The translations under genes and the position numbers were made by a program. A stretch of 64,000 nt of DNA from Candidatus Zambryskibacteria bacterium RIFOXYC1_FULL_39_10 (GTDB taxonomy: Bacteria > Patescibacteriota > Minisyncoccia > Phycocordibacterales > WO2-35-19): assembly GCA_001824275.1 (NCBI GenBank), contig MHWW01000003.1, forward strand, positions 19,325 to 83,324, written 5' to 3'. The notes beneath the pieces are model-generated. The model searched no databases, had not been told where the DNA came from, and saw nothing but the letters and a program-made list of their open reading frames with translations. Position 1 is the first letter of the stretch. Each line of letters starts with the position of its first letter. Positions 9,846 to 41,218 of this stretch are shown here, one piece after another.

Positions 9846-9860
9846 AGGTATATTATACTA

Positions 9861-9878
9861 TCTCGGCTATCCGAGATG
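9861..9878. promoter_or_regulatory. inverted repeat ATCTCGG-ctat-CCGAGAT immediately upstream of the giant gene start; candidate operator
   Basis: 7-bp arms. A related palindrome atctcggatactcgagat sits at 9443-9460 inside the coding region. Confidence 0.3.
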
Positions 9879-9890
9879 AATAAAAAACCT

Positions 9891-9899
9891 GTGGATAAA
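9891..9899 (-). promoter_or_regulatory. perfect DnaA-box 9-mer (TTATCCACA on the minus strand)
   Basis: tgtggataa on the plus strand. Confidence 0.5.
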
Positions 9900-10097
9900 T
9901 CTCAAATTATTTTGTTATAAAAATTATTTAAAAATGTGAACATAATTGAATCCAATAAATAACCCAGAAGATCGCATAATCATCAGTGCTATGAAGGTTA
10001 AGTCCAGAAACCTCGGGTAACCTCAATAACTAGATTTATAACATCAACATGATATTATCTATATACATTATATCATCAATAATAATTTTAAAATCTA

Positions 10098-13056: not shown

Positions 13057-13115
13057 ATTTATATAGAAAATATAAGCTAATTTATGAAATTATGCAAAGT
13101 ATTAAATGAAAATTA

Positions 13116-15071: not shown

Positions 15072-15094
15072 ATAAATATTTTATCACAAATTAA

Positions 15095-26993: not shown

Positions 26994-27779
26994 TTGTTTT
27001 GGTGTCTAAAAAATAAAATGAAAAATATCAGGATAATACCCAGATTAGATATAAAAGGGCCTAATGTGGTAAAACCAGTCCAAACAGAAGCCTTGAGAGT
27101 GGTTGGTGATCCAAAAAAGTTAGCCTTACATTATTACGAAGGTGGAGCTGATGAACTTATTTATTTAGATATTGTTGCTAGTCTGTATGGGCGCAACATA
27201 GATTTTGATTTATTGAAATCAGTCACTGAAAATATTTTTATTCCTATAACCGTTGGAGGAGGTATTAGAAGTATTCATGACATAAATAATGTTCTGCGCT
27301 CAGGAGCAGACAAAATTGCCATTAATACATACGCAGTAAGACATCCAGAATTCTTGAGTGAGGCTGTTCGTGAATTTGGTTCTCAGTGTATAGTTTTATA
27401 TGTCGAAGCAAAAAAACAACCAAATGGAGACTACGAAGCTTACACCGACGGTGGCCGTGAAAGAAGCGGATTTGAAGTAGTCAATTGGATAAAAAGAGCT
27501 ATCGATTTGGGTATTGGTGAAATATTGCTCACATCAGTCGATCAAGATGGCACAAGACGAGGCTTTGATATTGAATTATTAAAAAAAGTTTTAGCCTTCT
27601 CCCCTATTCCAGTGATTGCTCACGGCGGAGCTGGCAAACCGGAAACTTTAAAAGAAGCGGTGCTTGATGCAAAAGTTGACGCTTTAGGTATTTCTTCTAT
27701 TTTCCATTACAATGAATTCCCAATAAAAGAAATGAAGAAATATTTGTATAAAAATAAAATCAATATAAGAAATGTATGA
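26994..27779 (+). CDS. HisF-like cyclase subunit (WbuZ-type; imidazole glycerol phosphate synthase family) for amidino-sugar synthesis
   Basis: IIPRLDIKG...GGADELIYLDI...ITVGGGIRS is the HisA/HisF TIM-barrel pattern. It is not in a his operon; it sits next to HisH-like and WbpG-like genes. Confidence 0.8.
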   Translation: MFWCLKNKMKNIRIIPRLDIKGPNVVKPVQTEALRVVGDPKKLALHYYEGGADELIYLDIVASLYGRNIDFDLLKSVTENIFIPITVGGGIRSIHDINNVLRSGADKIAINTYAVRHPEFLSEAVREFGSQCIVLYVEAKKQPNGDYEAYTDGGRERSGFEVVNWIKRAIDLGIGEILLTSVDQDGTRRGFDIELLKKVLAFSPIPVIAHGGAGKPETLKEAVLDAKVDALGISSIFHYNEFPIKEMKKYLYKNKINIRNV

Positions 27780-28432
27780 AAAATGATTTGAAAATAGCAA
27801 TCGTAGATTATGGTGTTGGCAACTTATATAGTTTAATCAAAGCTTTTGAATTTTGGGGTGTACAAGCAATCGTGAGTGAAGATCCAAAAGTTTTAAAAGA
27901 AGCGAGCGCTATTGTTTTACCCGGAGTGGGCTCTTTCGAAGCTGGAATGAGGGGTTTGGAAATAAGAGAATTGGTTGAAACAATTCAGGAAATTGCCAAG
28001 AGTGGCAAACCAATACTCGGTATATGTTTAGGTGCTCAATTAATGCTTTCTCTAGGACATGAATTTGGTATTTTTAAAGGATTAGACATTATCAGAGGAA
28101 AGGTTGTACGATTTCCAAATTTAGATAATAATGAAAAAGTTCCTCACATTGGTTGGAATACAATTTCCCCACCCAAGAATATAGACTGGAAAGATACGAT
28201 CCTGGATTCATCTGACCCTAAAAACAGTTTCTACTTTGTTCATTCCTATATATTAGAACCAGAATCAAAGGAAAATATTTTTGCCTTAACGGAGTACGGC
28301 GGATACACTTTTTGTTCAATAGTTAAAAAAGGAAATATTTATGGTTGTCAGTTCCATCCTGAAAAAAGTGGCGAAGTAGGATTAAAATTAATTAATAATT
28401 TTATAAATTTAATAAAATATGGAAAAAATTGA
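27776..28432 (+). CDS. HisH-like glutamine amidotransferase subunit (WbuY-type)
   Basis: IAIVDYGVGNLYSL...GVGSF...GICLGAQLM...H.GWN is class-I GATase. Confidence 0.8.
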   Translation: MKNDLKIAIVDYGVGNLYSLIKAFEFWGVQAIVSEDPKVLKEASAIVLPGVGSFEAGMRGLEIRELVETIQEIAKSGKPILGICLGAQLMLSLGHEFGIFKGLDIIRGKVVRFPNLDNNEKVPHIGWNTISPPKNIDWKDTILDSSDPKNSFYFVHSYILEPESKENIFALTEYGGYTFCSIVKKGNIYGCQFHPEKSGEVGLKLINNFINLIKYGKN

Positions 28433-29678
28433 AACAAAATATGGTTTACCTTCTGAGGTAAAATTTTGTAAAAAGTGTGTGATCTCAAATCAGCGACCAA
28501 ATTCTGCAATTGAATTTACTCATACCAAGGATTCCTTAAAAAAAACCATATTTTTTGACGAGCATGATGTGTGCGACGCATGTAATTTCGCAAAAATAAA
28601 AACTCAAATCGACTGGAAAGAAAGAGAAAAAGAATTAATTGAACTTTGCAACCGTCATAGAAAAGATAATGGAGAATACGACTGCCTCGTTCCAGGTTCC
28701 GGAGGAAAAGATAGTTTTTACGCAGCTCACATTCTTAAATATAAATACAATATGCATCCACTAACTGTTACTTGGGCACCGCATATTTACACAGATTGGG
28801 GATGGAGAAACTTTGAATCGTGGATTCATGCTGGATTTGATAATTATCTTTGTACCCCAAATGGAAAAGTTCACCGCTTATTGACCCGCCTGGCGGTTGA
28901 AAATATTTTTCACCCTTTTCAAGCATTTATGTTAGGACAAAAATCGTTGGCCCCCAAAATGGCCATTCTTTTCAACATTCCTCTAGTCTTTTTTGGAGAA
29001 AACGAGGTTGAATACGGCAACCCAGTTGCAGATGCTACATCACCAAAAAGAGATCAAAAATATTTTAGTGCCACCGATATTTCCAAGATTCATCTTGGTG
29101 GAGTATCGGCTACAGATTTAATAAAAGATTATGGATTAACAAATAACGATCTCCAACCATACCTTCCGGCAGATCCTTCTAAAATAGAGAAGCTTGGAAT
29201 GGAAGTTCATTATTTAGGTTACTATTTAAAATGGCACCCACAAAGTTGTTACTATTACACAACCGAGCATAGTAATTTTGAAGCGTCTCCTGAAAGAACT
29301 CCTGGCACATACAGTAAATACAATAGTATTGATGACAAAATTGACGATCTTCATTACTATACGACGTTTATAAAATTTGGAATTGGCCGAGCCACCTATG
29401 ATGCTGCTCAAGAAATCCGATCAGGAGATATTACTAGAGAGGAAGGAGTGTCTTTGGTAAAAAGATTTGACGGAGAGTACCCTGAAAGATTTGAGGAAGA
29501 ACTTTTTCGTTATCTCACTATAACAAAAAAGGAATTTCCCGATGCTTATAAAATGTTTTCACATCCAAAAATGGACCACGAATATTTTGCTCATTTAGCT
29601 GATAAATTTCGTTCTCCTCATCTCTGGGAAAAATTACCAAATAGTGAGTGGAGATTAAGACATACAGTTTGGGAATAA
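28419..29678 (+). CDS. N-acetyl sugar amidotransferase (WbpG/WbuX/PseA family, PP-loop ATPase)
   Basis: PP-loop SGGKDS plus an N-terminal Cys cluster. Confidence 0.75.
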   Translation: MEKIETKYGLPSEVKFCKKCVISNQRPNSAIEFTHTKDSLKKTIFFDEHDVCDACNFAKIKTQIDWKEREKELIELCNRHRKDNGEYDCLVPGSGGKDSFYAAHILKYKYNMHPLTVTWAPHIYTDWGWRNFESWIHAGFDNYLCTPNGKVHRLLTRLAVENIFHPFQAFMLGQKSLAPKMAILFNIPLVFFGENEVEYGNPVADATSPKRDQKYFSATDISKIHLGGVSATDLIKDYGLTNNDLQPYLPADPSKIEKLGMEVHYLGYYLKWHPQSCYYYTTEHSNFEASPERTPGTYSKYNSIDDKIDDLHYYTTFIKFGIGRATYDAAQEIRSGDITREEGVSLVKRFDGEYPERFEEELFRYLTITKKEFPDAYKMFSHPKMDHEYFAHLADKFRSPHLWEKLPNSEWRLRHTVWE

Positions 29679-29693
29679 TATAATATACTAAAC

Positions 29694-30428
29694 ATGAAAA
29701 ATTTTTTAGGATTAATTCTTGCGCGAGGGGGATCTAAGAGAATTCCAAGAAAAAACATAAAGGAATTTTTAGATAAACCATTGATAGCCTGGTCTATCGA
29801 AGCTGGACTTAAGAGTGGAATATTTGATCGTATAGTTCTTTCTACAGACGACGAAGAAATCGCTTCTGTAGGTAAAAATTGGGGTGCAGAAGTTCCTTTT
29901 ATGAGACCTTCAAAATTGGCTAGTGACACCGCTACCTCTGACGATGCCATAAGGCACGCAATTCAGTGGCTTCGTAATAAAGAAAAATATAATCCTGAAT
30001 GGGTATTTTTATTTGAACCCACTGCTCCTGCAAAACAACCTTTTCATTTTTGTGATGTTGCAAAAATTATACAAGGAAACAATAATTTTGATTCAGTCGT
30101 AGGTATTTCAGAATTTCCAGATCAATACACCCATGTTATGCAAATTAAATTAGATAATAATAATTTTATTTCTAGAGCGTGGGATAATGAACTTTTAAAA
30201 AATATGCCAAAAAGTTCAAGAGAGATACCTAAATCATATCTACTAAACCCACAAGTATACGCTTTTAAAGCTGAAAATCTTTTCAAGGGTAATGGTAGTA
30301 TGTGGGGCGACAGCACATATGGTTATTTAATGGACAACAAATATAATATCGACATTGATACACCGGATGATTGGAAAGTGGCAGAAGCCAAAATGAAAAA
30401 AATATTGGATGACCTAAATAAAGAATAA
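29694..30428 (+). CDS. acylneuraminate (CMP-nonulosonic acid) cytidylyltransferase, copy 1
   Basis: LILARGGSKRIPRKNI...KPLI is the CMP-NeuAc/CMP-Kdo synthetase N-terminus. Confidence 0.8.
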   Translation: MKNFLGLILARGGSKRIPRKNIKEFLDKPLIAWSIEAGLKSGIFDRIVLSTDDEEIASVGKNWGAEVPFMRPSKLASDTATSDDAIRHAIQWLRNKEKYNPEWVFLFEPTAPAKQPFHFCDVAKIIQGNNNFDSVVGISEFPDQYTHVMQIKLDNNNFISRAWDNELLKNMPKSSREIPKSYLLNPQVYAFKAENLFKGNGSMWGDSTYGYLMDNKYNIDIDTPDDWKVAEAKMKKILDDLNKE

Positions 30429-30435
30429 AAAGAAA

Positions 30436-30461
30436 GGGCATCGAGTATACTCTCGACGCCC
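30436..30461. terminator. hairpin GGGCATCGAG-tatact-CTCGACGCCC between convergent genes (A-run upstream)
   Basis: 9/10-bp stem. Confidence 0.35.
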
Positions 30462-30476
30462 CAGAAAAACTCAACG

Positions 30477-31532
30477 TTAAACTAGACTCTCTATCGCTTT
30501 GAGGGCGATGGCCGGATCGAATGGCTTCAATTTAGCCAGACTGATCTCATCCGCTGACCGGATAAAAGGACCCAAGTCGCACGGTTCTTTCAAGGATTGC
30601 GCGCAGCCCAGCTTCACAATCGGAACCTCAGTTAATCCTCCAGACTGAAACAGCAATTGTTTCCCAATTTCTGTCTCCAAAGAAATGGCGGCTCTTCGAG
30701 CGTACGCTGCTGTGTTCAGCATCAAACTGAACCCAGAAATGGTCGCATCACAGAGGACAGCCAGAGCATCTCCCAACTTGCAATCAACTGAAACAATGTG
30801 CTCGCCAAATTGACTAAGCATACCGTTCCAGTAGTCTGCCCACTTCAAGCCTGGCTCCTTATCGCTCTTAGCGATTGTTGGGTGAGGTCGTGAGATCAGA
30901 CACCAATCTTCGGTAAGTTTCAGGCACTCGATGAGCAACTGAAGCTCAACCGTCATCTCTTGTGGATTGCCTCCGGCAAAGACGATGACCCTGCCAAATT
31001 GAGAACGAAGTTCTTCAACCCTTCTCTCAACTTCATCAGGAATGCTCATTTTTTCAATCACTGTTGGGTTGCCAGCAATTATGACGCGCATGTTGGGATA
31101 TGACATCTCTGCCAATTCCCTGGCATATTCGTCAAGTGTGACGACAACATCAGGCCTTGCCTTGTACAACTGACAACAGCCCCAGTAATCCTCCATGAGA
31201 ACCAGAGGTATTCCGAGAGTATTCGCGGCTTCCCCAAAAATAGATTCTAGACTATCCGGCACACTTCTGGTTGCCACCACCACATCCGGTCTAAACTTCA
31301 CCAAGACCGAATGAGCCTCCACGGAAAAACTTATTTCCTTTTGGTTTTCCGGCCCTTTAAAGACAAGCTTTGCTTTTGAATCGTAGTTGAAAAACCCCGC
31401 TTCTTGGAACCGATCAGCGGCAAGTCCTTCAACGACAATTAGGATTTCGTGACCCCTATCTAGGGCCAATTTTGCAGTAGGAACGGACATTTTAGCCCCA
31501 CCGTTGTCTCGAGAAACAAACAATATTTTCAA
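30477..31532 (-). CDS. GT-B/Rossmann-like protein of unknown function (possibly a PseG-type UDP-sugar hydrolase or glycosyltransferase); ~50% GC
   Basis: N-terminus MKILFVSRDNGGAKMSVPTAKLALDRGHEILIV and C-terminal region RVIVFAGGNP suggest a two-Rossmann GT-B fold. GC is markedly above the flanks. Confidence 0.4.
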   Translation of the reverse strand: MKILFVSRDNGGAKMSVPTAKLALDRGHEILIVVEGLAADRFQEAGFFNYDSKAKLVFKGPENQKEISFSVEAHSVLVKFRPDVVVATRSVPDSLESIFGEAANTLGIPLVLMEDYWGCCQLYKARPDVVVTLDEYARELAEMSYPNMRVIIAGNPTVIEKMSIPDEVERRVEELRSQFGRVIVFAGGNPQEMTVELQLLIECLKLTEDWCLISRPHPTIAKSDKEPGLKWADYWNGMLSQFGEHIVSVDCKLGDALAVLCDATISGFSLMLNTAAYARRAAISLETEIGKQLLFQSGGLTEVPIVKLGCAQSLKEPCDLGPFIRSADEISLAKLKPFDPAIALKAIESLV

Positions 31533-31648
31533 AATACACCTCTACTTTAAAGTATAGCGTATTTTTTATAATTTGTCAATCAGAAGTTGACCTTTTACTC
31601 TTTTATTGATAATATTTATGCGGACATAAAGTTCAAAAAAGGAGAAAT

Positions 31649-32602
31649 ATGAGATCTATCTACCGCATGGAAGCTGGTCATGTGATTGTCACTAACGCAT
31701 GCAATCTAGAGTGCTCCAACTGCACCCAGATGGTTGGCCACTACAAGAAACCCTACTTCATGGACACAGAGACAGTTCGTCGGGCGATTCTGTCACTCGT
31801 AACCCCATACACGACGATTAGCCAGGAATTCCCTGAGGGATTCCCTGGAGTCATCGGCATTTTTGGTGGCGAGCCGACCGTCCATCCCCAGTTTGCCGAA
31901 ATCTGCAAGCTGGTTCAGGAACTGATCCCTAACCGTCGCAAGAGAGGGCTCTGGACGGATGGATATCGTCTTGAACGATATCGGTCTATCATAGACGATA
32001 CATGGGATCCGGATCTCGTCCTCCTCAACCGACACGAAGACGAAACGGGGCGACATCAACCGCTCCTGATCGCTTCCGACGAGGTAGTGGATGACAAAGT
32101 TCTCATGTGGAAGTTAATTCACAATTGCTGGATCCAGGAACGATGGTCCTTCGGATGCACTCCCAAAGGCGGATTCTTTTGTGAACATGCGGCCGCTATG
32201 GACATGCTCTTTGATGGACCAGGTGGTTATCCACTTGAACCAGGCTGGTGGGCAAAAGAAGCCAACCAATTCCTAGATCAAGTCGAGCGATCATGCACCC
32301 GTTGTAGTGCCGCGATTCCGATGCCTGCAGTAAGAGCTTCGGAACAATTCGACATCGTCTCTGCCGGCAACTTAGAATTGCTACGAAAAGCCGGGTCTCC
32401 GAGAGTTCGAGATGGCAAAGTGGTTGTATTCAACCAAAAGATCTCTCGAGAAGAAATAGAGAAGATGCTCCGAACCGGCTGGTCACCGTGGAGACACGAC
32501 CCCCAAACCAACCTTCTGGACAAAGATGAGGATTTTAACACCTACAACCCCCCTCTCTTTGAAAAGGTCGGGGATTTGGTTCAGATCACTTTGACTGAGT
32601 AA
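31649..32602 (+). CDS. radical SAM domain protein (CxxxCxxC), unknown function; ~50% GC
   Basis: ACNLECSNC is the canonical radical SAM cluster motif. Confidence 0.7.
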   Translation: MRSIYRMEAGHVIVTNACNLECSNCTQMVGHYKKPYFMDTETVRRAILSLVTPYTTISQEFPEGFPGVIGIFGGEPTVHPQFAEICKLVQELIPNRRKRGLWTDGYRLERYRSIIDDTWDPDLVLLNRHEDETGRHQPLLIASDEVVDDKVLMWKLIHNCWIQERWSFGCTPKGGFFCEHAAAMDMLFDGPGGYPLEPGWWAKEANQFLDQVERSCTRCSAAIPMPAVRASEQFDIVSAGNLELLRKAGSPRVRDGKVVVFNQKISREEIEKMLRTGWSPWRHDPQTNLLDKDEDFNTYNPPLFEKVGDLVQITLTE

Positions 32603-32613
32603 ATGTCTTTAAC

Positions 32614-32656
32614 GGCTCGTGTTTCATTCTTTGGAGCACGAGCCTCGCTTTTTTAA
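32614..32656 (+). terminator. rho-independent terminator: GGCTCGTG...CACGAGCC then tcgctttttt
   Basis: 8-bp GC stem with a T-run, directly after the radical SAM gene. Confidence 0.6.
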
Positions 32657-32682
32657 AAATAAGAATTTGTTAGTATAGAGAG

Positions 32683-33546
32683 ATGAATCATTTAATTAGC
32701 GGTTTTAATGCCTTGCGATACGCGCTTACCGAACCATTCTTGCTTCAATTAGAGCGCTTTAAACATGAAAAAGAATATAGTGACAAAGACCAACAACCAC
32801 TTATAAGTATTTGCTTACCAACATATAATAGATCCAAACTTTTGATTGAACGCTCTGTGCCTAGTGTTTTAAATCAAACTTATAAAAATTTTGAATTAAT
32901 CATTATTGGTGATCATTGCACCGATGACACTGAAAAAAATATATCAAAAATAACCGACAAAAGAATTCGTTTTTATAATATTCCAAAAAGAAGTTATCGT
33001 TATCCGCCAACAACTGAAAATCATTGGTTTGCTGGGCCCGTAATAGCAAACAATGAAGCTTTAAAAATGGTCAAAGGAGAATGGATTACTCGAATAGATG
33101 ATGACGATATTTGGACCCCTGATCATCTGGAAGTACTTTTGGAATTTGCCGAAAAAGGAGATTACGAATTTATTTCAGCTCAATATATTGAAGAACGACA
33201 CGGTCAAAGACGAGTTGTAGACGGTGAGATGGCTGATGGACCCTATTTTAATCCAAAAAATCATGCCAAGATAAATATCGGTCCAAAACTCGGAGGAGTT
33301 CAAACATGGTTTTATCGATCCTACCTAAAATTTTTTAAATACAATATAAACTGCTGGCGAAAAAGTTGGAATAGAGTTAATGATATAGATTTAGAATACA
33401 GAATTTATAAAGCCGGTACCAGAATTGGTTTTTTAAATAAAGTAGTCGGTTATATTTTGCCTCGTCCAGGAGAAGAGACTGTTGGACTAGAAGCATACAA
33501 ATCAACTTCAAAAGAAAAACTAGAACATTTTGAATTTAAAAAGTAG
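32683..33546 (+). CDS. glycosyltransferase family 2
   Basis: ISICLPTYNRS..L...............IIGDHCTDDT and DDDD.W show the GT2 DxD pattern. Confidence 0.8.
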   Translation: MNHLISGFNALRYALTEPFLLQLERFKHEKEYSDKDQQPLISICLPTYNRSKLLIERSVPSVLNQTYKNFELIIIGDHCTDDTEKNISKITDKRIRFYNIPKRSYRYPPTTENHWFAGPVIANNEALKMVKGEWITRIDDDDIWTPDHLEVLLEFAEKGDYEFISAQYIEERHGQRRVVDGEMADGPYFNPKNHAKINIGPKLGGVQTWFYRSYLKFFKYNINCWRKSWNRVNDIDLEYRIYKAGTRIGFLNKVVGYILPRPGEETVGLEAYKSTSKEKLEHFEFKK

Positions 33547-34579
33547 TAGATTCAAATATTTTATTTTCTCTTAAAAAAGAAGTAATTTGTTTTCTAGACA
33601 TCACCCTTTTATCCGAAGAATAGGAATTTGGATTTATTTTTTTGGCTTGAACCATAAGTGGATTCTTTCTGTCTCCATAACGAGGCTCCATTGATGGCAA
33701 AATAACGAGCATGTCTTCAAACTCCACTACTCGTCCGCTTTCTTCTTCAGCTAAAAGTTTTTCGTGCATTTTTTCCCCAGCTCTTTTATCCATTTTTAGA
33801 ATTTGAATTTTATTTTTACCACCGCTTATCAGGAGATGCTCATCAATAATACATTGAGCTAAATCTTTTATATTTACAGACTTCATTTTTAAAACAAAAA
33901 CTTCCCCTCCTTGCATTTTTTCGGTAGCTTTAAATATAAGTTCAACAGCCTTCCCCATCGGCATCAGAAATCTAGTCATTTTTGAAGAAGTAACACTTAG
34001 GGGCAGATTTGCCTTTAATTGTTTAATAAAATGAGGAATTACTGACCCATTAGACATTGTCACATTACCAAATCTAACACATGAAAAAATAGTTGGTGAA
34101 TCACCCTTATAATAATTTGCCGCAGTAGTTATTTTTTCCCCCAAAAGTTTTGAGGCCCCCAATGTGCCAATTGGATGAACTGCTTTATCGGTACTTATGA
34201 AAATAAATTTCTTTATATCATTATGTAAAGCTGCGTCAATAACATTTTGAGTACCAATAACATTAGTTTTAATGGCTTCAAGCGGATTATATTCACAAAG
34301 ATGAACGTGTTTATATGCTGCTGCATGATAAACAATATCTACCCCATTCATCGCCCTCAAAATACGGTCTTTATCAGTAACATCGCCCAATAGAAACCTA
34401 ATTCTTTTTGATTCCTCTTCAGATAACAATCCCTGAAGCTTATGGAGCGAAAATTCATGATTGTCTAAAATTCTTACAGCTTTAGGTTCAAATTTCAAAA
34501 TTTCCCGCACTAAAGCACTGCCAATAGAACCGGCGCCACCGGTAACTAAAATAATTTTGTTTTTAAATTCGTTTATCAT
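33536..34579 (-). CDS. UDP-GlcNAc 4,6-dehydratase (PseB/LegB/CapD family SDR)
   Basis: TGGAGSIGS...YHAAAYKHV...NVIGT.NV..AA......KF..ISTDKAV.P....G.SK. Confidence 0.8.
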   Translation of the reverse strand: MINEFKNKIILVTGGAGSIGSALVREILKFEPKAVRILDNHEFSLHKLQGLLSEEESKRIRFLLGDVTDKDRILRAMNGVDIVYHAAAYKHVHLCEYNPLEAIKTNVIGTQNVIDAALHNDIKKFIFISTDKAVHPIGTLGASKLLGEKITTAANYYKGDSPTIFSCVRFGNVTMSNGSVIPHFIKQLKANLPLSVTSSKMTRFLMPMGKAVELIFKATEKMQGGEVFVLKMKSVNIKDLAQCIIDEHLLISGGKNKIQILKMDKRAGEKMHEKLLAEEESGRVVEFEDMLVILPSMEPRYGDRKNPLMVQAKKINPNSYSSDKRVMSRKQITSFLRENKIFESTTF

Positions 34580-35690
34580 GTTTTTTAATCACTTCAATAA
34601 CTTTTTTTGCTATTTCCATTATGTCGCCCTCTTTAAGGCCAATATATAGAGGCAGAGCAATGGCCGAATCACTTACGGATTCAGAAACTGGAAAATCACC
34701 CCGCTTATACTTAAATATTTTCTTATAAAAGTCAAACAGATGTATTGATGGTAAATAAGGTTTAGTCGCCACTTCAATCTTATATAAATCTTTTATAACC
34801 TCATCCCTTTTTATCTTTTTATTCTTTATAAGCAAAACGTACACAAACCAGGTATGAATGTTGTCTTCGCTCACTTGTGGAATTTGCACCAAATCAGAAT
34901 ATTTACCAAAATATTTATTATAAGTAATACATATTTTTTGTCTTTCTTTTATCATAAAGTCCAACTTTTCAAGTTGGGCAATACCAAGTGCCGCACTCAT
35001 CTCGTCCATCCGATAATTGTATCCCAAATACTTATGATCGAGCCATTGCATATTTGGCGAGCGTCCTTGATTTTTTAAACTGCAGCAAATTTCATAAATT
35101 TTTTTATTGTTTGTTACTATCATTCCCCCTTCTCCTGTTGTCATTTGTTTGTTTGGATAAAAGGCAAAAACAGCTGATTCCCCAAAAGTACCGACGTTTT
35201 TACTATCATATTTAGCCATTATTGATTCGCAAGCATCTTCAATAATTTTTAATTTATACTTTTTGGCAATCTTTAAAACTGAGTCCATGTCTGTCGCTTG
35301 GCCAAAAATATGAACTACTAATATGGCTTTTGTCTTTTTAGTTATTTTCTTTTCTATTTTTGTAACATCAATGTTATAGGTTGTTGGATCTATATCAACA
35401 AAAACTGGTTTGGCTCCCACATATAAGACTGCATTAGACGATGCAATAAATGAAAACGGAGAAGTAATGACTTCGTCACCTTCTTTGATTCCAGCAGCAA
35501 TCATAGCCAAGTGAAGTCCTGCCGTACCGCTAGAAACTGAGCAGGCATATTTGGTGCCTATTTTTTGAGCAAACTTTTCCTCAAATTCCTTGTGTTTTGG
35601 GCCCAAACTTAAATTGCCAGAGTCTAAAACCTCCAAAACTAGTTGTTTTTCTCTCTTATTTATATATGGTTTGGCTATTGGATATTTCAT
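34563..35690 (-). CDS. DegT/DnrJ/EryC1-family PLP aminotransferase (PseC/LegC-like)
   Basis: Fold-type I aminotransferase pattern with a conserved Lys region. Confidence 0.8.
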   Translation of the reverse strand: MKYPIAKPYINKREKQLVLEVLDSGNLSLGPKHKEFEEKFAQKIGTKYACSVSSGTAGLHLAMIAAGIKEGDEVITSPFSFIASSNAVLYVGAKPVFVDIDPTTYNIDVTKIEKKITKKTKAILVVHIFGQATDMDSVLKIAKKYKLKIIEDACESIMAKYDSKNVGTFGESAVFAFYPNKQMTTGEGGMIVTNNKKIYEICCSLKNQGRSPNMQWLDHKYLGYNYRMDEMSAALGIAQLEKLDFMIKERQKICITYNKYFGKYSDLVQIPQVSEDNIHTWFVYVLLIKNKKIKRDEVIKDLYKIEVATKPYLPSIHLFDFYKKIFKYKRGDFPVSESVSDSAIALPLYIGLKEGDIMEIAKKVIEVIKKHDKRI

Positions 35691-35750
35691 AAAAATGTGG
35701 CCTCAGAATAGCAGATTCTGAGGCCATTTGCACGCCTTGTGCATCTCTCA

Positions 35751-36368
35751 TTATTTCTTCCTGGCAACCTTTGCTGGATTGCCGTAAACCGTAATATTGT
35801 CCTCCACCGGCCCAACAACAGCACTTGCCATACCTATTATGGCCCCTTCTCCAATTTTGACATGGTCACGAATTGCGCTGTTTAAGCCGATAAATGTCCC
35901 ATCACCCACTATCACCCCACCACCGGTCACAACTCTGGGAGCTAGATGACAAAAATCCCCTATTTGATTGTCATGCTCAACGGTACAGCCGTTGTTGATA
36001 AACGTACCATTACCGATCGTACTTCTCACATTCACGTAAGAAAGCGCTCCGATCATCACATTATTTCCAAGGATCAAATCTGACTCAACAAAGGCAGAGG
36101 GGTGAATCGCATTAACAAACCTGGCTCCAGCCTCCTTAAGTTTCAAAAACACGTCACGACGAGCGCCATTACCACCGATCGCCACAAAAAAATAATCACC
36201 AGCTTCTTGAAATTTATGGAAATCAGAGACCTTGCCAAGTATCTCTGGGCCCACTTTTACATCATCAAGAAAACCGATAAACTTGTTTTCAAAATTTTGG
36301 TGATCAAAAATGTTTCTGATCACATATCCATTCTCTCCCGCACCAACGATAATTATATTTTTTGTCAT
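35751..36368 (-). CDS. hexapeptide-repeat sugar N-acetyltransferase (NeuD/PglD/PseH family)
   Basis: Left-handed beta-helix hexapeptide repeats after an N-terminal Rossmann-like segment. Confidence 0.8.
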   Translation of the reverse strand: MTKNIIIVGAGENGYVIRNIFDHQNFENKFIGFLDDVKVGPEILGKVSDFHKFQEAGDYFFVAIGGNGARRDVFLKLKEAGARFVNAIHPSAFVESDLILGNNVMIGALSYVNVRSTIGNGTFINNGCTVEHDNQIGDFCHLAPRVVTGGGVIVGDGTFIGLNSAIRDHVKIGEGAIIGMASAVVGPVEDNITVYGNPAKVARKK

Positions 36369-36412
36369 GTTTTTCCTCTTCTCGCCTCAGAATATCCTAT
36401 TTTTATAAATAA

Positions 36413-37576
36413 TCAATAACATATCTGCTTATTTAATATCTTGGGGGAAAGTTCTATTTTTTCTAAAATTTTAGCGATTTTTATTCCTGTCCTTCCATCA
36501 CCCCAAGGATTTTTAATTTTTTTAAGTTTATTTAAATATTTTTTATCATTTAAAGATTTGTGAATAGCTTTATATATTTTATTTCTATCATAATCCGCAT
36601 CCAAAACATTGTGACCTCTCTCTCGGCCAATTTGGCGATTACCAACATTAACTACCGGAGTTTTAAACGAGGATGATTCAATCAGTGCCGCGCTTGAATT
36701 ACCCACCCAGACCGATGCCTCTCTTTCAAGAGCCAAAAACTTTTTGTATTCCAAACTTGGGAAAATTTTAAATAAAGGATTATTTTTTTCTTTTTGTATC
36801 TCGTCAATAATTCTTCTGCCTCCAGCATCAGCATGCGGATAAATAAAAACTGCTGGCATATCAAACTTTTTAACCGCTTCTATTGTTTCTTTCATTTGAT
36901 TACCTGCATTCATTACCTCGTCACTTACTGGATGTTGCAACACTAGAATAAATTTATCTTTTATATTCATTCCCAAATCTGATAGGAGCTCACCTCTGGT
37001 TGGCAATTTTTCATTTAGTATCGTGTCCAAAGCCGGCGCTCCCACTATGTTTATTCGCCAACTATCCTCACCCATCCTTTTTATTCTTGAAGCAGCATCT
37101 TTAGTAGCCGGAAAATGGATGTTTGAGATTTTAGTAATTGCGTGACGTGACACTTCATCTACCGTGCCTGTTTTTTCGCCTCCATGAATATGAGCAATGG
37201 GAATACCTAAATATAGGCAGGCAACCGCAGTCAAAAGCATCTCTGATCTATCCCCCAATACAAGCACTAAATCTGGTTTCTCTTCTTTTAACTTAATCGT
37301 AATTTTTTTAAAGAAATTTGCATTGAACTCAGCTACTCCAGTTTTTTCATCACTTTTAGAACTTGTCTTGATTGTGTGAACTTCTGGAAAATGTTTTTTT
37401 ATATCATTTATGGTTTTACCAAACTGAAACATCAAATGCTCTCCTGCTGCACACAATATTAAATCTAAAGACTTGCTTGCTTTTATTGCTCTTAATACCG
37501 GTAGCATTAAACCAAAATCAGCCCTCGTCCCAGAAACATAAAAAATTTTTTTATTTTTTTGTCTAGATGAAATCAT
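36413..37576 (-). CDS. UDP-N-acetylglucosamine 2-epimerase (hydrolysing), NeuC/LegG-like
   Basis: VSGTRADFGLM...LGDRSEML...HIHGGE.TG..DE..RHAITK.S.IHF. Confidence 0.8.
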   Translation of the reverse strand: MISSRQKNKKIFYVSGTRADFGLMLPVLRAIKASKSLDLILCAAGEHLMFQFGKTINDIKKHFPEVHTIKTSSKSDEKTGVAEFNANFFKKITIKLKEEKPDLVLVLGDRSEMLLTAVACLYLGIPIAHIHGGEKTGTVDEVSRHAITKISNIHFPATKDAASRIKRMGEDSWRINIVGAPALDTILNEKLPTRGELLSDLGMNIKDKFILVLQHPVSDEVMNAGNQMKETIEAVKKFDMPAVFIYPHADAGGRRIIDEIQKEKNNPLFKIFPSLEYKKFLALEREASVWVGNSSAALIESSSFKTPVVNVGNRQIGRERGHNVLDADYDRNKIYKAIHKSLNDKKYLNKLKKIKNPWGDGRTGIKIAKILEKIELSPKILNKQICY

Positions 37577-38627
37577 TTTTTTTAATTAAATTATCGGCCT
37601 TTATAGCCATCTTTGAAATCTTACCTAAAATTTTAAAATAATATTTGGGAGGCAAACCAGTGCCGGGACGTTTGATGTTAATATTTTCTTTAGTAAACTT
37701 TTCACCCTTTTTGATACCACGGATTGCAACTAAACTTTTTCTAACTATATTTATATTTTTTATTTCTCCTTTAGTTGGCTTTTTTTCTTTAGAACCCAAA
37801 ATTATTTCTGCTTGACGAATTTCATCTACCATTTTTTTGAAAACTTCCGGATTAGCCGATGCTTTATGATCTGGGCCTTTCATTTTATTGTCCAGAGTAA
37901 AATGTTTTTCAATTATTTGAGCCCCTAGTGCCACCGCCATGACCGGCACTTGAGTACCAATTGTGTGATCAGAATATCCGATCATCACATCCAAATCCTT
38001 CATCATTGTCTGCATGGCCCTTAAATTGACCTTTTCAGCTGCACATGGGTAATTAGTAGTGCAATGAAGCACTATTATTTTATTGTTTCCGACAGATTTT
38101 ATTATATTTATTGCTTTTCTAATCTCATCTATCGTAGCCATTCCTGTCCCAAGAATCATAGGTTTTTTAAATTTAGCGGCATATTTTAATAGTGGTAAGT
38201 TGGTCAAGTCTCCAGAGCCAAATTTAAATGCTGGCACTCCAATTTTTTGAAGCAAATCAACTGATTCAAAACCACCATGAGGAGTAGAAAGAAAAATTAT
38301 ATTTTTCTCCTTGCATCGTTTAATTATTTTAGGATACCAATCCTCTTTAAACTCCAGTTTTTTAAGCATCTCAATTTGACTTTCTTTTTTACCAACATTT
38401 CCTTTTTGATAATCAGCCATTCTGACATTTTTAGTTACTACTTGATTTGCTTTAAATGTCTGAAATTTTATCGCATCTGCTCCAACCTCCTTTGCCTTAT
38501 CAACCAATTTTAAAGCTAAATCAAGAGAGCCATTATGATTGACACCCGCCTCAGCAATAATAAATGTTGAGTGTCCTTCCCCCACACTTTTGTTTCCTAT
38601 TGCTATTTTTAATAATCTTTTATTCAT
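37563..38627 (-). CDS. nonulosonic acid synthase (NeuB/LegI/PseI family) with C-terminal SAF domain
   Basis: FIIAEAGVNHNGSLDLA..L...K..GADA.KFQT and DHT.G pattern. Confidence 0.88.
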   Translation of the reverse strand: MNKRLLKIAIGNKSVGEGHSTFIIAEAGVNHNGSLDLALKLVDKAKEVGADAIKFQTFKANQVVTKNVRMADYQKGNVGKKESQIEMLKKLEFKEDWYPKIIKRCKEKNIIFLSTPHGGFESVDLLQKIGVPAFKFGSGDLTNLPLLKYAAKFKKPMILGTGMATIDEIRKAINIIKSVGNNKIIVLHCTTNYPCAAEKVNLRAMQTMMKDLDVMIGYSDHTIGTQVPVMAVALGAQIIEKHFTLDNKMKGPDHKASANPEVFKKMVDEIRQAEIILGSKEKKPTKGEIKNINIVRKSLVAIRGIKKGEKFTKENINIKRPGTGLPPKYYFKILGKISKMAIKADNLIKKNDFI

Positions 38628-39670
38628 TTTAATAAAACAAATTTTTTTGTTTTTGCGCTTTCTTCTAGTGCAAAAAGAACTTTAAGATGCTTAAGACTTT
38701 CTTTAAAAGAAAAGGGATACTTTGATTTCTTTTGAATCGCATTCAAAAAATGCCCTATCTCTTCTTCATACATATCTTCAGTGGTTATATAGTTCTTTTC
38801 GCTTTTTCCTTTTTTTAAATCTATTACTCGCCAATTGTGGCCAGAATTATTGTCTATCTTTTTTTGTTTAAATATTTTTATCTTATTTTCTTGCCATTCC
38901 CATTCCAAAACTCCTTCTGATCCAATAACTCTCAAAGTTCTGAAAGGTTTTTTTGAAATTAAATCAATAACTATATTGCCAGATATTTTGTTTTTGAACC
39001 CAAGCATTGCTGAATATCTGTCATCAGCCTTCATATCCAAGTCAGAAAGTTTCTCGGAAAATCCAGCAATTTTTGATACATCTCCTAGACCCAAAGCAAA
39101 ATCAAGCCAGACCAACTCAAAACCAAACATTTCTCGACAAGCTCCAGTATTTTTCTTGGCAAAATATACATCTCTAAAATCCTCCCAAGGATGCCAGCTT
39201 GGCAAGTACTGACCGAGGTGGTATTGGAATGATAGAATTTTACCTATTGCTTTTTTATCTAGTATTTTTTTAATTTCTTTAACTGCGGGGTGAAATCTTA
39301 ATGTGCACGAAGGCGCGGCCACTAAATTTTCATCTTTCAAATTTAGAATCCTATCATACCCCTTATCCGTCACCGGATGTTCCACAAAAAAATGTTTTCT
39401 GTTTTTAATAGCGTTAAGGAAATAAATATAATGCTTGTCAGCTGGGGTTGATATAATATAGGCATTCGGATTCGCCTTGAGTGCTGTGTTAAAACTTTTA
39501 AAGGTTACGATGCCATGTTTTGTTTCCGATTCCTTTCGTCTATCTTCTCTTGGGTCAAACCCAAATATTTTTTCTGCCTTAATACCATGGTAAAGAAGAT
39601 TCCTTATTCTCCTTTTACCCATTGACCCCAAACCTATTACCAAAAATTTAAAATCTTTTAAGTCTTTCAT
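38624..39670 (-). CDS. Gfo/Idh/MocA-family NAD(P)-dependent oxidoreductase
   Basis: FLVIGLGSMGKRR N-terminal Rossmann. Confidence 0.6.
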   Translation of the reverse strand: MKDLKDFKFLVIGLGSMGKRRIRNLLYHGIKAEKIFGFDPREDRRKESETKHGIVTFKSFNTALKANPNAYIISTPADKHYIYFLNAIKNRKHFFVEHPVTDKGYDRILNLKDENLVAAPSCTLRFHPAVKEIKKILDKKAIGKILSFQYHLGQYLPSWHPWEDFRDVYFAKKNTGACREMFGFELVWLDFALGLGDVSKIAGFSEKLSDLDMKADDRYSAMLGFKNKISGNIVIDLISKKPFRTLRVIGSEGVLEWEWQENKIKIFKQKKIDNNSGHNWRVIDLKKGKSEKNYITTEDMYEEEIGHFLNAIQKKSKYPFSFKESLKHLKVLFALEESAKTKKFVLLK

Positions 39671-40370
39671 CTATTTTATCTTTATGTTTATGTAAAAATT
39701 CTGCCAGCACCCAATCTTCCGGATGATCTAAATCGACCGATCGCCATTTAGGGGTGATGACTCCGACGGTATGTTCATCAACAAATTTTTTAGTCTGAAG
39801 AAATACATTTGTTTTAATCATATATACCATGCATCCATTTAATATATAACCTTTCTGCATTTCTGTGGTATTGGTTGTTTTGTCAGTTTCTTTGTTCACC
39901 AAAATTAACTGGCTATTTTTATTGAGCTGATAAAATCGAGGATGTGTTTCGGTAATTGTGCATACAGATTTTATTTTTGGTTTTGATATTAGTTCATAAC
40001 AAGCGTTTATATCTTCTAACTCTCGCAAAGGAGAAGTGGTTTGTAAAAGAGTTATAATGTGGGGCTGATACTTATGTTCTTCCTTTAATTTTCTTAATAA
40101 AAATTCTATAACATCCCCTATTTTTGCCTGACTTGTTGCTAAATGCTCTGGTCTTAAAAAAGGAACTTCCGCGCCATATCTAATCGCCACTTTTGCAATT
40201 TCTAGACTATCAGTATCAACTATAATTTTATCAAAAATCCCACTTTGGATAGCTTGAATTATGGGGTAGTAAATTAATGGTTTTCCATTAAATATCTTTA
40301 TGTTTTTATTAGGAATTCTTTGAGATCCTCCTCTTGCAGGGATAATGGCTAAAGACTTTTTCATAGCCAA
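39648..40370 (-). CDS. acylneuraminate (CMP-nonulosonic acid) cytidylyltransferase, copy 2
   Basis: LAIIPARGGSQRIPNKNI...KPLI. Confidence 0.82.
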   Translation of the reverse strand: MAMKKSLAIIPARGGSQRIPNKNIKIFNGKPLIYYPIIQAIQSGIFDKIIVDTDSLEIAKVAIRYGAEVPFLRPEHLATSQAKIGDVIEFLLRKLKEEHKYQPHIITLLQTTSPLRELEDINACYELISKPKIKSVCTITETHPRFYQLNKNSQLILVNKETDKTTNTTEMQKGYILNGCMVYMIKTNVFLQTKKFVDEHTVGVITPKWRSVDLDHPEDWVLAEFLHKHKDKIDERLKRF

Positions 40371-40405: not shown

Positions 40406-41218
40406 TTAGGAAGAATAATTATACGGAATCCAACCATCTTTAGTTTTTTGAATAGACCAAATAGAGTGCCTCATACCTACTTTGTTATTCCACACATCTT
40501 TAACGGCTAGAGTTACACCAGCATGATATGTTCTACCTTCTTTATCTGTTACGAAGTCTTTTTCTCTGTTTTCTTTAGCCAAATTTTCATCAATTTGGTC
40601 TGAGAAGTAATCTAGATCATCTCCGCACATTATTCCCCCTATTTCCAAAATATTAAAATAATTTATAAAATCTTTTTTAGCTTGAGTATATTTGTGGTCT
40701 CCATCTATATAAATGAAATCAAATTGAGTATCTTTTTCTTTCTCAGCGAATTCATCACTAGTCATTTGTATAGGAATTATGTAATTCTCTACCCCTGAAT
40801 ATTTTACATTGTGTTTAAATAAATTAAATATGGCGGATGCACTTACTTTTCCTTTAGTTATCTTTATATTCTCATCAGTACCTCGCCAAACATCAATACA
40901 ATAAAGCATTCCACCTTTACCAGATTTTTTTATAGTTTCAGCTATTGTTACAGCCGAACACCCTGCCCAAGAACCAATCTCTAAACATTTAATATTTTCT
41001 TTTAAATTCTGAACCTGTTTTACTAATCTTCTCAATATCTCTCTCTCTTTCTTGCTTTGTATATTTGCTCCATATTTTTTACCAAAATATGGTTTTTTTA
41101 GGACCAGGCATATAAAATAATGTATGTTTGTAAATATTATTTCTATCTTAAAATGCCTAATCTTATTTAAGATAAAATATAATGGTTTTATTTTTTTTAT
41201 TATATTTTTCATATTCAC
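40406..41218 (-). CDS. class I SAM-dependent methyltransferase (Methyltransf_24-like)
   Basis: LEIGSWAGCSA...IDGDH. Confidence 0.65.
   Translation of the reverse strand: MNMKNIIKKIKPLYFILNKIRHFKIEIIFTNIHYFICLVLKKPYFGKKYGANIQSKKEREILRRLVKQVQNLKENIKCLEIGSWAGCSAVTIAETIKKSGKGGMLYCIDVWRGTDENIKITKGKVSASAIFNLFKHNVKYSGVENYIIPIQMTSDEFAEKEKDTQFDFIYIDGDHKYTQAKKDFINYFNILEIGGIMCGDDLDYFSDQIDENLAKENREKDFVTDKEGRTYHAGVTLAVKDVWNNKVGMRHSIWSIQKTKDGWIPYNYSS

Follow-up and report, generated by a model that had tools for sequence, protein, structure and literature searches.

A candidate cluster for an amidino-modified legionaminic-type sugar in a Patescibacteria genome, with a putative second CMP-nonulosonate synthetase and two uncharacterised enzyme families

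We analysed a 64,000-nucleotide stretch of Candidatus Zambryskibacteria bacterium RIFOXYC1_FULL_39_10, a groundwater member of the Patescibacteria, or candidate phyla radiation (CPR), known from a public metagenome-assembled genome (MAG); this whole stretch is called the window. It contains a sugar gene cluster whose product is probably a cytidine monophosphate (CMP)-activated 5,7-diamino-3,5,7,9-tetradeoxy-nonulosonic acid that decorates a surface glycan. Judged by protein families, the sugar is most likely Leg5Am7Ac (5-acetamidino-7-acetamido legionaminic acid), the positively charged, amidino-modified legionaminic acid of Legionella pneumophila. At its core the cluster follows a known plan, in which a legionaminic-type pathway is joined to a PtmG/WbuX-type amidino module, and the genome itself was already public. 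The novelty lies in the CPR host, in a conserved second CMP-synthetase, and in two enzyme families that have not been characterised and that accompany nonulosonate clusters. We found no open-access literature linking CPR, Patescibacteria or Parcubacteria to nonulosonic, legionaminic or pseudaminic acid. The same contig also turns up in JGI and ENA metagenomes. SecA, GatB and all the cluster proteins that were queried have exact matches among GenBank entries of the OHB162xx series, which identify the organism; several of them are annotated just as hypothetical.

Genes were called from a listing of open reading frames (ORFs) and assigned using Pfam and NCBIfam profiles with curated equivalog cut-offs and relatives in the PDB; these cut-offs and PDB relatives also set the class of the synthase and the epimerase. 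The original prediction, made from the letters of the DNA, had placed eleven enzymes here. All eleven are intact ORFs at the positions given for them, have strong family matches, and pass the curated cut-offs where a suitable model exists. Chance matches can be excluded because of the E-values and because the synteny is kept in other genomes. The genes are spaced by -23 to +60 bp in ORF coordinates and are thus taken to form operons. On the plus strand, hisF, hisH, an amidotransferase gene and a cytidylyltransferase gene (CT2) overlap or lie no more than 15 bp apart. On the minus strand, eleven co-directional genes run from 44629 down to 33536: a methyltransferase (MT23), a GT2 glycosyltransferase, a 501-residue Capsule_synth-like protein, a second methyltransferase, a cytidylyltransferase (CT1), a Gfo/Idh/MocA oxidoreductase, NeuB, NeuC, NeuD, a DegT aminotransferase and a dehydratase (DH46). 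Between the two blocks lie a gene for a protein without a Pfam family (unk351, minus strand), a radical S-adenosylmethionine (SAM) gene and a GT2 glycosyltransferase gene (both plus strand). The last two, at 31649–32602 and 32683–33546, fall within the range of the original prediction and are absent from it. The nonulosonate genes open a glycan island that begins just past secA and a gene for a Wzy_C protein with tetratricopeptide repeats (TPR) and ends at about 62 kb. It encodes at least nine glycosyltransferases, at least eight SAM methyltransferases, a flippase, an AsnB-like amidotransferase and PMT_2-like GT-C proteins.

The strongest single evidence for a legionaminic-type product is the close sequence match of the N-acetyl sugar amidotransferase (NASAT; WbuX/WbpG/PtmG family), encoded at 28419–29678 on the plus strand, to PDB entry 8wex, the L. 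pneumophila NASAT (711 bits, 71.3% identity over 415 residues). The protein scores 381 bits on TIGR03573 (cut-off 203) and contains a PP-loop motif, SGGKDS, and cysteines in a CxxC...CxxC pattern. In L. pneumophila, the NASAT gene (ORF 28) lies in the Leg5Am7Ac O-antigen operon with neuA, neuB, neuC and neuD, and it is a homologue of Campylobacter jejuni PtmG (PMC10607449, PMC3766260). Upstream in the window are a HisF-like cyclase subunit of the WbuZ/HisF2 type (26994–27779, plus strand; PF00977, E 1e-63) and a HisH-like class-I glutamine amidotransferase of the WbuY type (27776–28432, plus strand; PF00117, E 4e-23; TIGR01855 204 bits, cut-off 105). The HisF and HisH frames overlap by 4 bp and the HisH and NASAT frames by 14 bp. 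That these three genes form an acetamidino-forming trio had been predicted, and the family scores and overlapping ORFs bear it out: by family, the NASAT with its dedicated HisH/HisF pair is such a trio. HisF and HisH could in principle be an ordinary imidazole glycerol phosphate synthase of histidine biosynthesis that merely adjoins a glycan locus, as HisH passes the hisH equivalog cut-off and HisF scores 293.3 bits on the hisF model (cut-off 294.55). We consider this extremely improbable. The two genes overlap the NASAT gene within one operon, the pair flanks NASAT in 43–46 of 48 loci from many phyla, and no further his genes were found among the window ORFs scanned. Moreover, WbuY/WbuZ-type pairs are established partners of WbuX-type amidotransferases (PMC10607449; also the NCBIfam description of TIGR03572).

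A NASAT scan across one genome per GTDB species returned 556 relatives, of which the best 80 define loci L005–L084. These best 80 are 70–75% identical and come nearly all from environmental MAGs of more than ten phyla, including Burkholderiales and other Proteobacteria, Patescibacteria, Omnitrophota, Melainabacteria/Cyanobacteria, Nitrospira/Nitrospinota, Leptospira, Geotalea, Gemmatimonadota, Acidobacteriota, Planctomycetes and Actinomycetes; neither Legionella nor Campylobacter is among the best 80 of 556. The flanks of the 48 NASAT loci with at least 8 kb on both sides were searched by tblastn with the window proteins. HisF was found in 46 of the 48, HisH in 43, a cytidylyltransferase of any kind in 45, NeuB in 42 and NeuC in 44. 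Because NeuB, NeuC and a cytidylyltransferase occur jointly in 40 of the 48, this NASAT subtype marks nonulosonate clusters. From this linkage and the L. pneumophila orthology, we infer that the NASAT substrate is a nonulosonate or its CMP form, with the amidino group formed at N5. The original prediction had described such sugars as normally a feature of host-associated bacteria. This does not hold here, given the groundwater CPR host and the same gene set in environmental MAGs of more than ten phyla.

The usual proteobacterial order is aminotransferase-NeuC-NeuB-NeuD-cytidylyltransferase-NASAT-HisF-HisH. The closest relatives of the window genes are in Patescibacteria loci (L006, L008, L013, L021, L047 and L069), where the order is HisF-HisH-NASAT-...-CT1-like-Gfo/Idh/MocA-NeuB-NeuC. 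In L006 a formyltransferase (9172–9975) replaces NeuD, L008 has a sulfotransferase (12005–13213), and in L091 an ATP sulfurylase, an APS kinase and a sulfotransferase (11141–14887) lie by a homologue of unk351. These genes suggest formylated and sulfated nonulosonate glycans in related organisms. The NASAT stays 70–75% identical across more than ten phyla (CPR, Legionella, Leptospira, Melainabacteria and Actinomycetes among them); the neighbouring pathway enzymes are about 30–45% identical to those of the window. Such conservation points to unusually strong constraint on this single gene, to its repeated horizontal spread, or to both.

The enzymes that would build the nonulosonate are encoded in the minus-strand block. 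The dehydratase (33536–34579) is a soluble UDP-HexNAc 4,6-dehydratase of the Polysacc_synt_2 (PglF/PseB/CapD) family (PF02719, E 1e-97). Its gene overlaps by 17 bp that of the DegT-family sugar 4-aminotransferase (34563–35690; PF01041, E 5e-123). Gaps of 44–60 bp then surround the gene for a NeuD/PglD-type left-handed beta-helix N-acetyltransferase (35751–36368), which scores 193 bits on the NeuD/PglB/VioB family model TIGR03570 (cut-off 161) and has a PglD_N domain (PF17836) and hexapeptide repeats. The hydrolysing nucleotide-sugar 2-epimerase of the NeuC/LegG type (36413–37576) scores 391 bits on TIGR03568 (cut-off 236) versus 119 bits on WecB. Its PDB relatives are human GNE (186 bits) and the GDP/UDP-diNAcBac hydrolysing 2-epimerase 5zlr/5xvs (181 bits), whereas non-hydrolysing enzymes reach at most 78 bits and meningococcal SiaA (6vlb) 58 bits. 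The NeuB/LegI-type synthase with its SAF domain (37563–38627) scores 455 bits on TIGR03569 (cut-off 400), 322 bits on the PseI model (cut-off 340) and 28 bits on DAHP synthase. No second NeuB was found among window ORFs of at least 150 residues.

These scores agree with the prediction that the set, together with the Gfo/Idh/MocA oxidoreductase, is a 5,7-diamino nonulosonate pathway, and they place neither the synthase with DAHP synthases nor the epimerase with non-hydrolysing WecB. The prediction had also taken the NeuC-like epimerase to favour a legionaminic-type product. In support of this, NeuC and NeuB pass their NCBIfam cut-offs, whereas all pseudaminic acid equivalogs fall short: PseB at 299 bits (cut-off 408), PseC at 321 (424), PseI as given above, and PseF at 171 and 170 for the two cytidylyltransferases (206). 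No ORF in the scanned range matches a model for PseG or the GNAT-type PseH. A plain N-acetylneuraminic acid (Neu5Ac) pathway of the NeuABC(D) kind was also considered. It is disfavoured, and a 5,7-diamino sugar favoured, because the dehydratase and aminotransferase genes are co-directional and tightly spaced with those for NeuD, NeuC and NeuB; in addition, NeuC matches the diNAcBac epimerase far better than SiaA.

CT1 (39648–40370, minus strand; PF02348, 88 bits) is a putative CMP-nonulosonate synthetase of the LegF/NeuA kind. Its best NCBIfam match is PseF, below the cut-off, and in the PDB it matches the NeuA structure 9ftb at 123 bits and KdsB structures at no more than 40 bits. A LegF-specific model is not among the hits of either CT1 or CT2. 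CT1 homologues are 48–58% identical in the Patescibacteria loci and 63% in L087. The adjoining gene encodes the Gfo/Idh/MocA oxidoreductase (38624–39670, minus strand; PF01408, PF22725, PF02894), and an oxidoreductase of this family sits next to a cytidylyltransferase in about 15 tabulated loci. In Plesiomonas, the PtmF oxidoreductase is encoded beside LegF, and homologues are named in Vibrio fischeri, Escherichia coli and Campylobacter coli (PMC4481668). By analogy, the pairing of CT1 with the oxidoreductase reproduces the LegF-PtmF arrangement of a characterised legionaminic acid cluster.

Family membership suggests the following chemistry for all steps. The dehydratase would convert UDP-GlcNAc to a 4-keto-6-deoxy sugar, the DegT aminotransferase would add a 4-amino group, and acetylation by the NeuD/PglD-type enzyme would give a UDP-2,4-diacetamido-2,4,6-trideoxyhexose of the diNAcBac type. 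The NeuC-type enzyme would then remove UDP and epimerise C2, and NeuB would condense the free sugar with phosphoenolpyruvate to Leg5Ac7Ac. CT1, which is LegF-like and paired with its oxidoreductase as LegF is with PtmF, would form CMP-Leg5Ac7Ac. The PP-loop NASAT would use ATP and ammonia, which HisH would release from glutamine and HisF would channel to it, to turn the 5-N-acetyl group into an acetamidino group. Transfer of the sugar could be carried out by the KpsC-like 501-residue protein, by the GT-B protein unk351, or by both, and the flippase, glycosyltransferases and Wzy_C/TPR protein of the approximately 35-kb island would build and attach the glycan.

Several points weigh against Leg5Am7Ac as the specific product. 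The dehydratase falls below three cut-offs (PseB as given; FnlA 226 versus 730; LegB, TIGR04180, 67 versus 475), and its PDB matches (6bwc 256 bits, PseB 2gn4 222, PglF 5bju 181) place it nearer to 6bwc and PseB than to PglF. A C5-inverting enzyme is therefore possible, and stereochemistry is unreadable from the sequence. The aminotransferase is below the cut-off of LegC (300 versus 420 bits) as well as that of PseC. A PtmE-like nucleotidyltransferase and a PtmA-like SDR are absent from the window and present in the related loci L093 and L094. HisF falls marginally under both curated cut-offs, that of hisF and that of WbuZ (264.5 versus 299.7). Because the dehydratase lies nearer to 6bwc/PseB and the aminotransferase is under both the LegC and the PseC cut-off, the stereochemistry is only inferred; because PtmE- and PtmA-like genes are not present, the activating nucleotide of the early steps is assumed. 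At the dehydratase motif of residues ~130–150, STDKAVHPIGTLGASK, Leu occupies the position filled by Tyr in PseB (YGATK) and by Met in PglF/CapE (MGATK).

Inversion of C5 by the dehydratase, or epimerisation of a centre by the Gfo/Idh/MocA or the radical-SAM enzyme, would lead to a different stereoisomer of a 5,7-diamino nonulosonate: a pseudaminic-like or acinetaminic-like sugar, or 4-epi- or 8-epi-legionaminic acid. The kinship of the dehydratase to 6bwc and PseB fits this, as do the slightly higher score of the aminotransferase on PseC than on LegC and the PseF match shared by both cytidylyltransferases. A twitch-type radical-SAM enzyme and a Gfo/Idh/MocA enzyme together could also oxidise and re-reduce a carbinol centre. 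We nonetheless think a different stereoisomer unlikely. The Pse-specific models all fall short of their cut-offs, PseG and PseH have no match, the synthase passes NeuB and fails PseI, and a 2-epimerising hydrolase of the NeuC type is present above its cut-off. With 71% identity, the NASAT is closely orthologous to that of L. pneumophila, a Leg5Am7Ac producer. Finally, the aminotransferase has its best PDB matches among perosamine synthases (262 bits, followed by PglE at 185 and PseC at 175; its L006 homologue is 72% identical). Perosamine synthases put an equatorial C4 amine on a D-hexose.

The second cytidylyltransferase, CT2 (29694–30428, plus strand; PF02348, 81 bits), is encoded by the last gene of the hisF-hisH-NASAT operon and also resembles CMP-nonulosonate synthetases. 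Besides its PseF score, it reaches 29–44 bits on KdsB models (cut-offs 155–255); in the PDB it matches NeuA (9ftb) at 142 bits and KdsB structures at 35 bits or less. CT1 and CT2 are 35% identical to each other and both have intact P-loop and DxD motifs. The original prediction had suggested two activated nonulosonates or a second sugar like Kdo (3-deoxy-D-manno-octulosonic acid). The Kdo-like role is unlikely because both enzymes match the NeuA structure best, at 123–142 bits versus at most 40 bits for KdsB; in addition, the window ORFs that were scanned include neither a second synthase nor anything KdsA-like. Orthologues of CT2 are 68–73% identical in L085, L087 and L090, beside unk351 homologues (the 68% one is P0010, on the L090 contig). 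L090 matches the window gene for gene, keeping both the CT1 and the CT2 gene types. In L087 the CT2 orthologue (73%) follows HisH and the CT1 orthologue (63%) follows the NASAT of that locus, and in L085 the CT2 orthologue (70%) follows a NASAT merely 44% identical to that of the window. Since sister CPR loci retain an orthologue of each, CT1 and CT2 are probably not redundant and both apparently selected. Among the 80 NASAT loci only one (L043) has two cytidylyltransferases, together with a second NeuB. Paired CTP_transf_3 genes within a single nonulosonate cluster occur also in an Omnitrophota MAG (L093) and in L096.

What CT2 does is less clear from these comparisons. Our leading but tentative reading is that CT2 activates this same nonulosonate in a form with other modifications, either the amidino form or one altered by the adjacent radical-SAM enzyme. 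A difficulty for the amidino form is that, if the NASAT acts on CMP-Leg5Ac7Ac, as is stated for PtmG, a synthetase for the amidino form would be unnecessary. A more elaborate and rather doubtful version is that CT2, the radical-SAM enzyme, the neighbouring GT2 glycosyltransferase and unk351 form a conserved accessory branch in which the single NeuB product is converted to a second, chemically distinct CMP-nonulosonate, for instance one that is oxidised, epimerised or otherwise radical-modified, and installed. If so, a CPR cell would display two nonulosonates that one synthase has made. The reading would extend to Omnitrophota and other environmental clusters (L093, L096), in which a second LegF-like enzyme stands in a block rich in radical-SAM genes, and the branch might relate to unassigned CMP-ulosonates recently seen by mass spectrometry.

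CT1 and CT2 might instead be functionally redundant, a relic of joining a cytidylyltransferase-NASAT-HisF-HisH cassette to a LegF-PtmF-NeuB block. Most reference loci have a single cytidylyltransferase, by NASAT (about 40 loci) or by the Gfo/Idh/MocA gene (about 15), and the window has both positions; gene content around NASAT is modular. The window NASAT, of the Legionella type, is unlike the 396–397-residue NASATs of the sister loci (44–46% identity in L085 and L087), and because of this difference cassette exchange can be said to occur. However, CT2 stays where the NASAT subtype differs (L085) or where NASAT pairs with CT1 (L087), and for this reason it is not a passenger of the NASAT cassette; that candidate explanation was rejected, as CT2 is retained alongside other subtypes of NASAT and, in L087, without one next to it. 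The orthologues, moreover, are kept at 63–73% identity in diverged genomes with P-loop and DxD intact, and paired CTP_transf_3 genes are seen again in nonulosonate clusters unrelated to this one (L093, L096 and Ca. Kuenenia). Small genomes such as those of CPR bacteria tend to shed superfluous genes. Redundancy is, in our view, unlikely. Less probable still is that CT2 links CMP to something other than a nonulosonate, such as a Kdo-like octulosonate or a hexosamine-type precursor for the radical-SAM/GT2/GT-B module. The Pfam match of CT2 is strong over residues 6–87 alone, and the sugar-binding half is divergent. A CMP-linked HexNAc-like species without an alpha-keto acid is described in Magnetospirillum, and in Ca. 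Kuenenia a legF homologue lies between legB and legC (bioRxiv 10.64898/2026.04.20.719630), the same dehydratase-cytidylyltransferase-aminotransferase order as in L063. Against such a substrate stand the KdsB scores of CT2, at most 44 bits versus 142 for NeuA, and the lack of KdsA or a second NeuB among the ORFs scanned. In L089, furthermore, a CT2-family member (55%) lies near NeuB-NeuC, one unannotated gene from NeuB, at the position of the pathway synthetase.

The radical-SAM enzyme (31649–32602, plus strand) has a CxxxCxxC motif (C18/C22/C25) and a weak match to PF04055. Its structural model (pLDDT, a per-residue confidence score, 86) shows a twitch-dehydrogenase-like fold, with SpeY (7wzx, E 1e-8) and BtrN (4m7t, E 6e-4) as the best Foldseek matches, at about 16% sequence identity, TM-scores of about 0.5 and a large root-mean-square deviation. 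SpeY and BtrN act on aminocyclitol or sugar carbinols. Further invariant cysteines in the family (C86, C160, C178, C216 and C219) would fit an auxiliary cluster. Our best guess from the model is oxidation of a sugar carbinol, possibly within an epimerisation. A role as PtmH, the amidino N-methylase, is improbable and was rejected: the fold matches dehydrogenases, not methylases, and PtmH and Legionella ORF 8 are described as ordinary methyltransferases (PMC3766260). The family is about 50% identical across Patescibacteria, Omnitrophota, SAR324, Alphaproteobacteria and Nanoarchaeota. All members whose context was examined lie in nonulosonate clusters (L014, L085, L087, L090 and L093–L096); the gene directly abuts the amidino-trio genes in L014 and L094, and one GT2 gene intervenes in L093. 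Frequent companions are B12-dependent and SPASM radical-SAM enzymes, a TylF/Methyltransf_24-type methyltransferase and a GT2. In L093–L096 (Omnitrophota, a marine Tara contig and others), rows of B12-dependent and SPASM radical-SAM genes stand beside NeuB, cytidylyltransferase and NASAT genes, which hints at extensive uncharacterised radical chemistry on these sugars.

The radical-SAM gene is co-transcribed with a GT2 glycosyltransferase gene (GT2a; 32683–33546, plus strand; PF00535, E 2.5e-24). GT2a homologues occur beside legionaminic acid genes, at 64% identity in L006 and 57% in L051 and L071 (Curvibacter). Radical-SAM and GT2 genes are adjacent in L085, L087, L090 and L093 and within the same block in L094–L096. 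The GC content at third codon positions (GC3) is about 0.34 in housekeeping genes and 0.22–0.30 in most island genes; it is 0.49 in unk351 and 0.54 in the radical-SAM gene, whose immediate neighbours are at about 0.24. Homologues in L085, L090 and L091 repeat the contrast. Because sister loci share it, the contrast is a conserved property and not the mark of a one-off event here, and recent horizontal transfer was rejected as the source of the two GC-rich genes.

The remaining gene between the blocks, unk351 (30477–31532, minus strand), has no Pfam, NCBIfam (even at E 0.1) or PDB sequence match; a faint N-terminal Glyco_transf_4 similarity appears at E 0.026. An AlphaFold model built from 11 homologues (pLDDT 80; predicted TM-score, pTM, 0.81) has a GT-B fold, and its Foldseek neighbours are UDP-sugar 2-epimerases, MurG, GT1 enzymes and the polysialyltransferase 5wc6. 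A word-indexed search returned 12 clusters; the exhaustive profile search found about 950 representatives, so the idea of a tiny CPR-only family was dropped. A 41-member sample contains no Pfam family. D115 never varies, and E35-G36 and H217-P218 hardly ever do. An HP motif of this kind has been described for bacterial sialyltransferases (PMC5420450). Homologues adjoin NeuB, NeuC and cytidylyltransferase genes in L085, L087, L090, L091 and L092; in L091 and L092 neither a NASAT nor CT2 is in view. From the predicted structure and this context, unk351 is a candidate nonulosonate transferase. The original prediction had called this gene a GT-B protein that might be a PseG-type hydrolase. The predicted structure agrees with the fold, but a PseG role was rejected as the main interpretation, since NeuC invariably accompanies the gene; the search at E 0.1 gave no PseG model, the fold neighbours are generic GT-B proteins, and the family sits beside NeuB/NeuC/cytidylyltransferase clusters. 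The GT-B fold alone would be compatible with hydrolase chemistry.

A second candidate for a CMP-ulosonate-dependent transferase, by sequence, is the KpsC/KpsS-like 501-residue protein (41234–42739, minus strand; Capsule_synth, PF05159, E 5e-11 over residues 339–422). It matches KpsC structures over residues 346–420 (E 4e-5) and, weakly, NF046086 (BFO_1060 family glycosyltransferase), and it has an HP motif at residue 353. KpsC uses CMP-Kdo. Homologues are 67% identical in L087 and 31–33% in L008 and L047, and L095 has a Capsule_synth protein. Co-directional with CT1 is a class I SAM methyltransferase of the Methyltransf_24/TylF kind (40406–41218, minus strand; PF13578, E 7e-19), a candidate sugar modifier and possibly an analogue of PtmH; TylF/Methyltransf_24 methyltransferases adjoin NASAT or radical-SAM genes in L014, L095 and L096. 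The membrane protein with a Wzy_C domain and C-terminal TPR repeats (24709–26928, minus strand; PF04932, E 6e-20) is a candidate ligase or O-oligosaccharyltransferase and may attach the glycan to protein or another acceptor. A protein of this type also borders the sister locus L085 (2433–4622). CPR bacteria are expected to have no lipopolysaccharide (LPS).

Among the characterised systems closest to the window are ORFs 21–28 of the L. pneumophila LPS locus, which make a poly-Leg5Am7Ac O-antigen; shared are the DegT aminotransferase, NeuD, the hydrolysing NeuC, NeuB, a NeuA-type synthetase and the NASAT. Legionella is a diderm that carries the sugar as a homopolymer in its LPS. Its locus has one described neuA, and the dehydratase gene (lpg0966) stands apart from it, whereas the dehydratase gene of the CPR locus lies in the operon. 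The Gfo/Idh/MocA gene, the second cytidylyltransferase, the GT-B protein without a Pfam family and the radical-SAM enzyme are extra in the window. In the proteobacterial loci of this design that were compared, the neighbours other than NASAT are about 30–45% identical to those of the window. The legionaminic acid clusters of Campylobacter, Plesiomonas, Vibrio fischeri and E. coli O108 and O161 share the LegF-PtmF pair and the core LegB-C-H-G-I. The PtmG-type amidotransferase, which in C. jejuni gives Leg5Am7Ac that PtmH methylates further at the amidino group, is also shared. Campylobacter-type clusters, however, have PtmE (CBS and NTP_transferase domains) and PtmA (SDR), which the window lacks, and a LegB of the TIGR04180 type, to which the window dehydratase does not belong. 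The E. coli clusters have one sugar-phosphate nucleotidyltransferase (Elg6/Lea6) and one cytidylyltransferase; the window has two CTP_transf_3 genes.

WbuX-WbuY-WbuZ of E. coli O145 and WbpG-HisH2-HisF2 of Pseudomonas aeruginosa O5 have the same design as the trio, a PP-loop, Zn-tetracysteine amidotransferase with HisH-like and HisF-like partners. These systems amidate hexosamine derivatives (L-FucNAc and ManNAc3NAcA), whereas the NASAT subtype of the window is nearly always linked to NeuB and NeuC. Likened by its description, Ca. Kuenenia stuttgartiensis shares an environmental host, one nonulosonate cluster, two LegF-like cytidylyltransferases and enzymes that modify at the nucleotide-sugar level; its Leg-like cluster with two legF homologues is reported in the SugarBase preprint of 2026 (bioRxiv 10.64898/2026.04.20.719630). 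Kuenenia differs in having a deacetylase and a formyltransferase, with free-amine or formylated nonulosonates, and no amidino trio is described.

If the proposed pathway is correct, a CPR member devotes a large share of a very small genome to a coat of amidino-modified legionaminic acid. CPR organisms are metabolically reduced and probably spend their lives attached to other cells, and sugars of the Leg5Am7Ac type are elsewhere known from the Legionella O-antigen and Campylobacter flagellin. The "bacterial sialic acids" would then extend to an episymbiotic, non-LPS lineage, and a role in cell-cell attachment, charge control or phage evasion would be suggested rather than mimicry of an animal host. 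The locus also raises questions that apply to nonulosonate clusters of many uncultured phyla: what purpose the second CMP-synthetase serves, how a twitch-type radical-SAM enzyme acts on sugars, and whether the GT-B family without a Pfam model is a missing legionaminic acid transferase. The NASAT, at about 70–75% identity from CPR to Legionella, Leptospira, Melainabacteria and Actinomycetes, would be a useful metagenome marker for Leg5Am-type glycans.

Scans of the window for tRNAs and Rfam families were empty. Among the other genes of the island, in the part from 40406 to 62193, are the AsnB-like amidotransferase (45921–47747), a GT4-GtrA fusion (58443–59993) and a PMT_2 GT-C membrane protein (53786–55471), with a second, weak PMT_2 match at 50178–51518. 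At the far end of the island, a 590-residue protein (62223–63995, minus strand) has a weak TraG-D_C (coupling-protein) match, and an IS200-like Y1 transposase gene (10990–11643, plus strand; E 1.5e-8) lies upstream of the locus. A 2416-residue ORF (2595–9845, minus strand) has a Peptidase_S74 domain at residues 2117–2173 (E 1e-11) and a weak N-terminal HTH_17 match. Peptidase_S74 is the intramolecular chaperone of endosialidase tail spikes, and the product has the look of a giant fibre or tail-spike protein; its gene lies some 17 kb from the locus for a sialic-acid-like sugar. Genes for a GH15 glucoamylase-like protein, a GH57 protein and a GT4/GT5 starch-synthase-like protein stand together at 13116–17597 on the minus strand and look like a small alpha-glucan (glycogen-type) module of a reduced genome.

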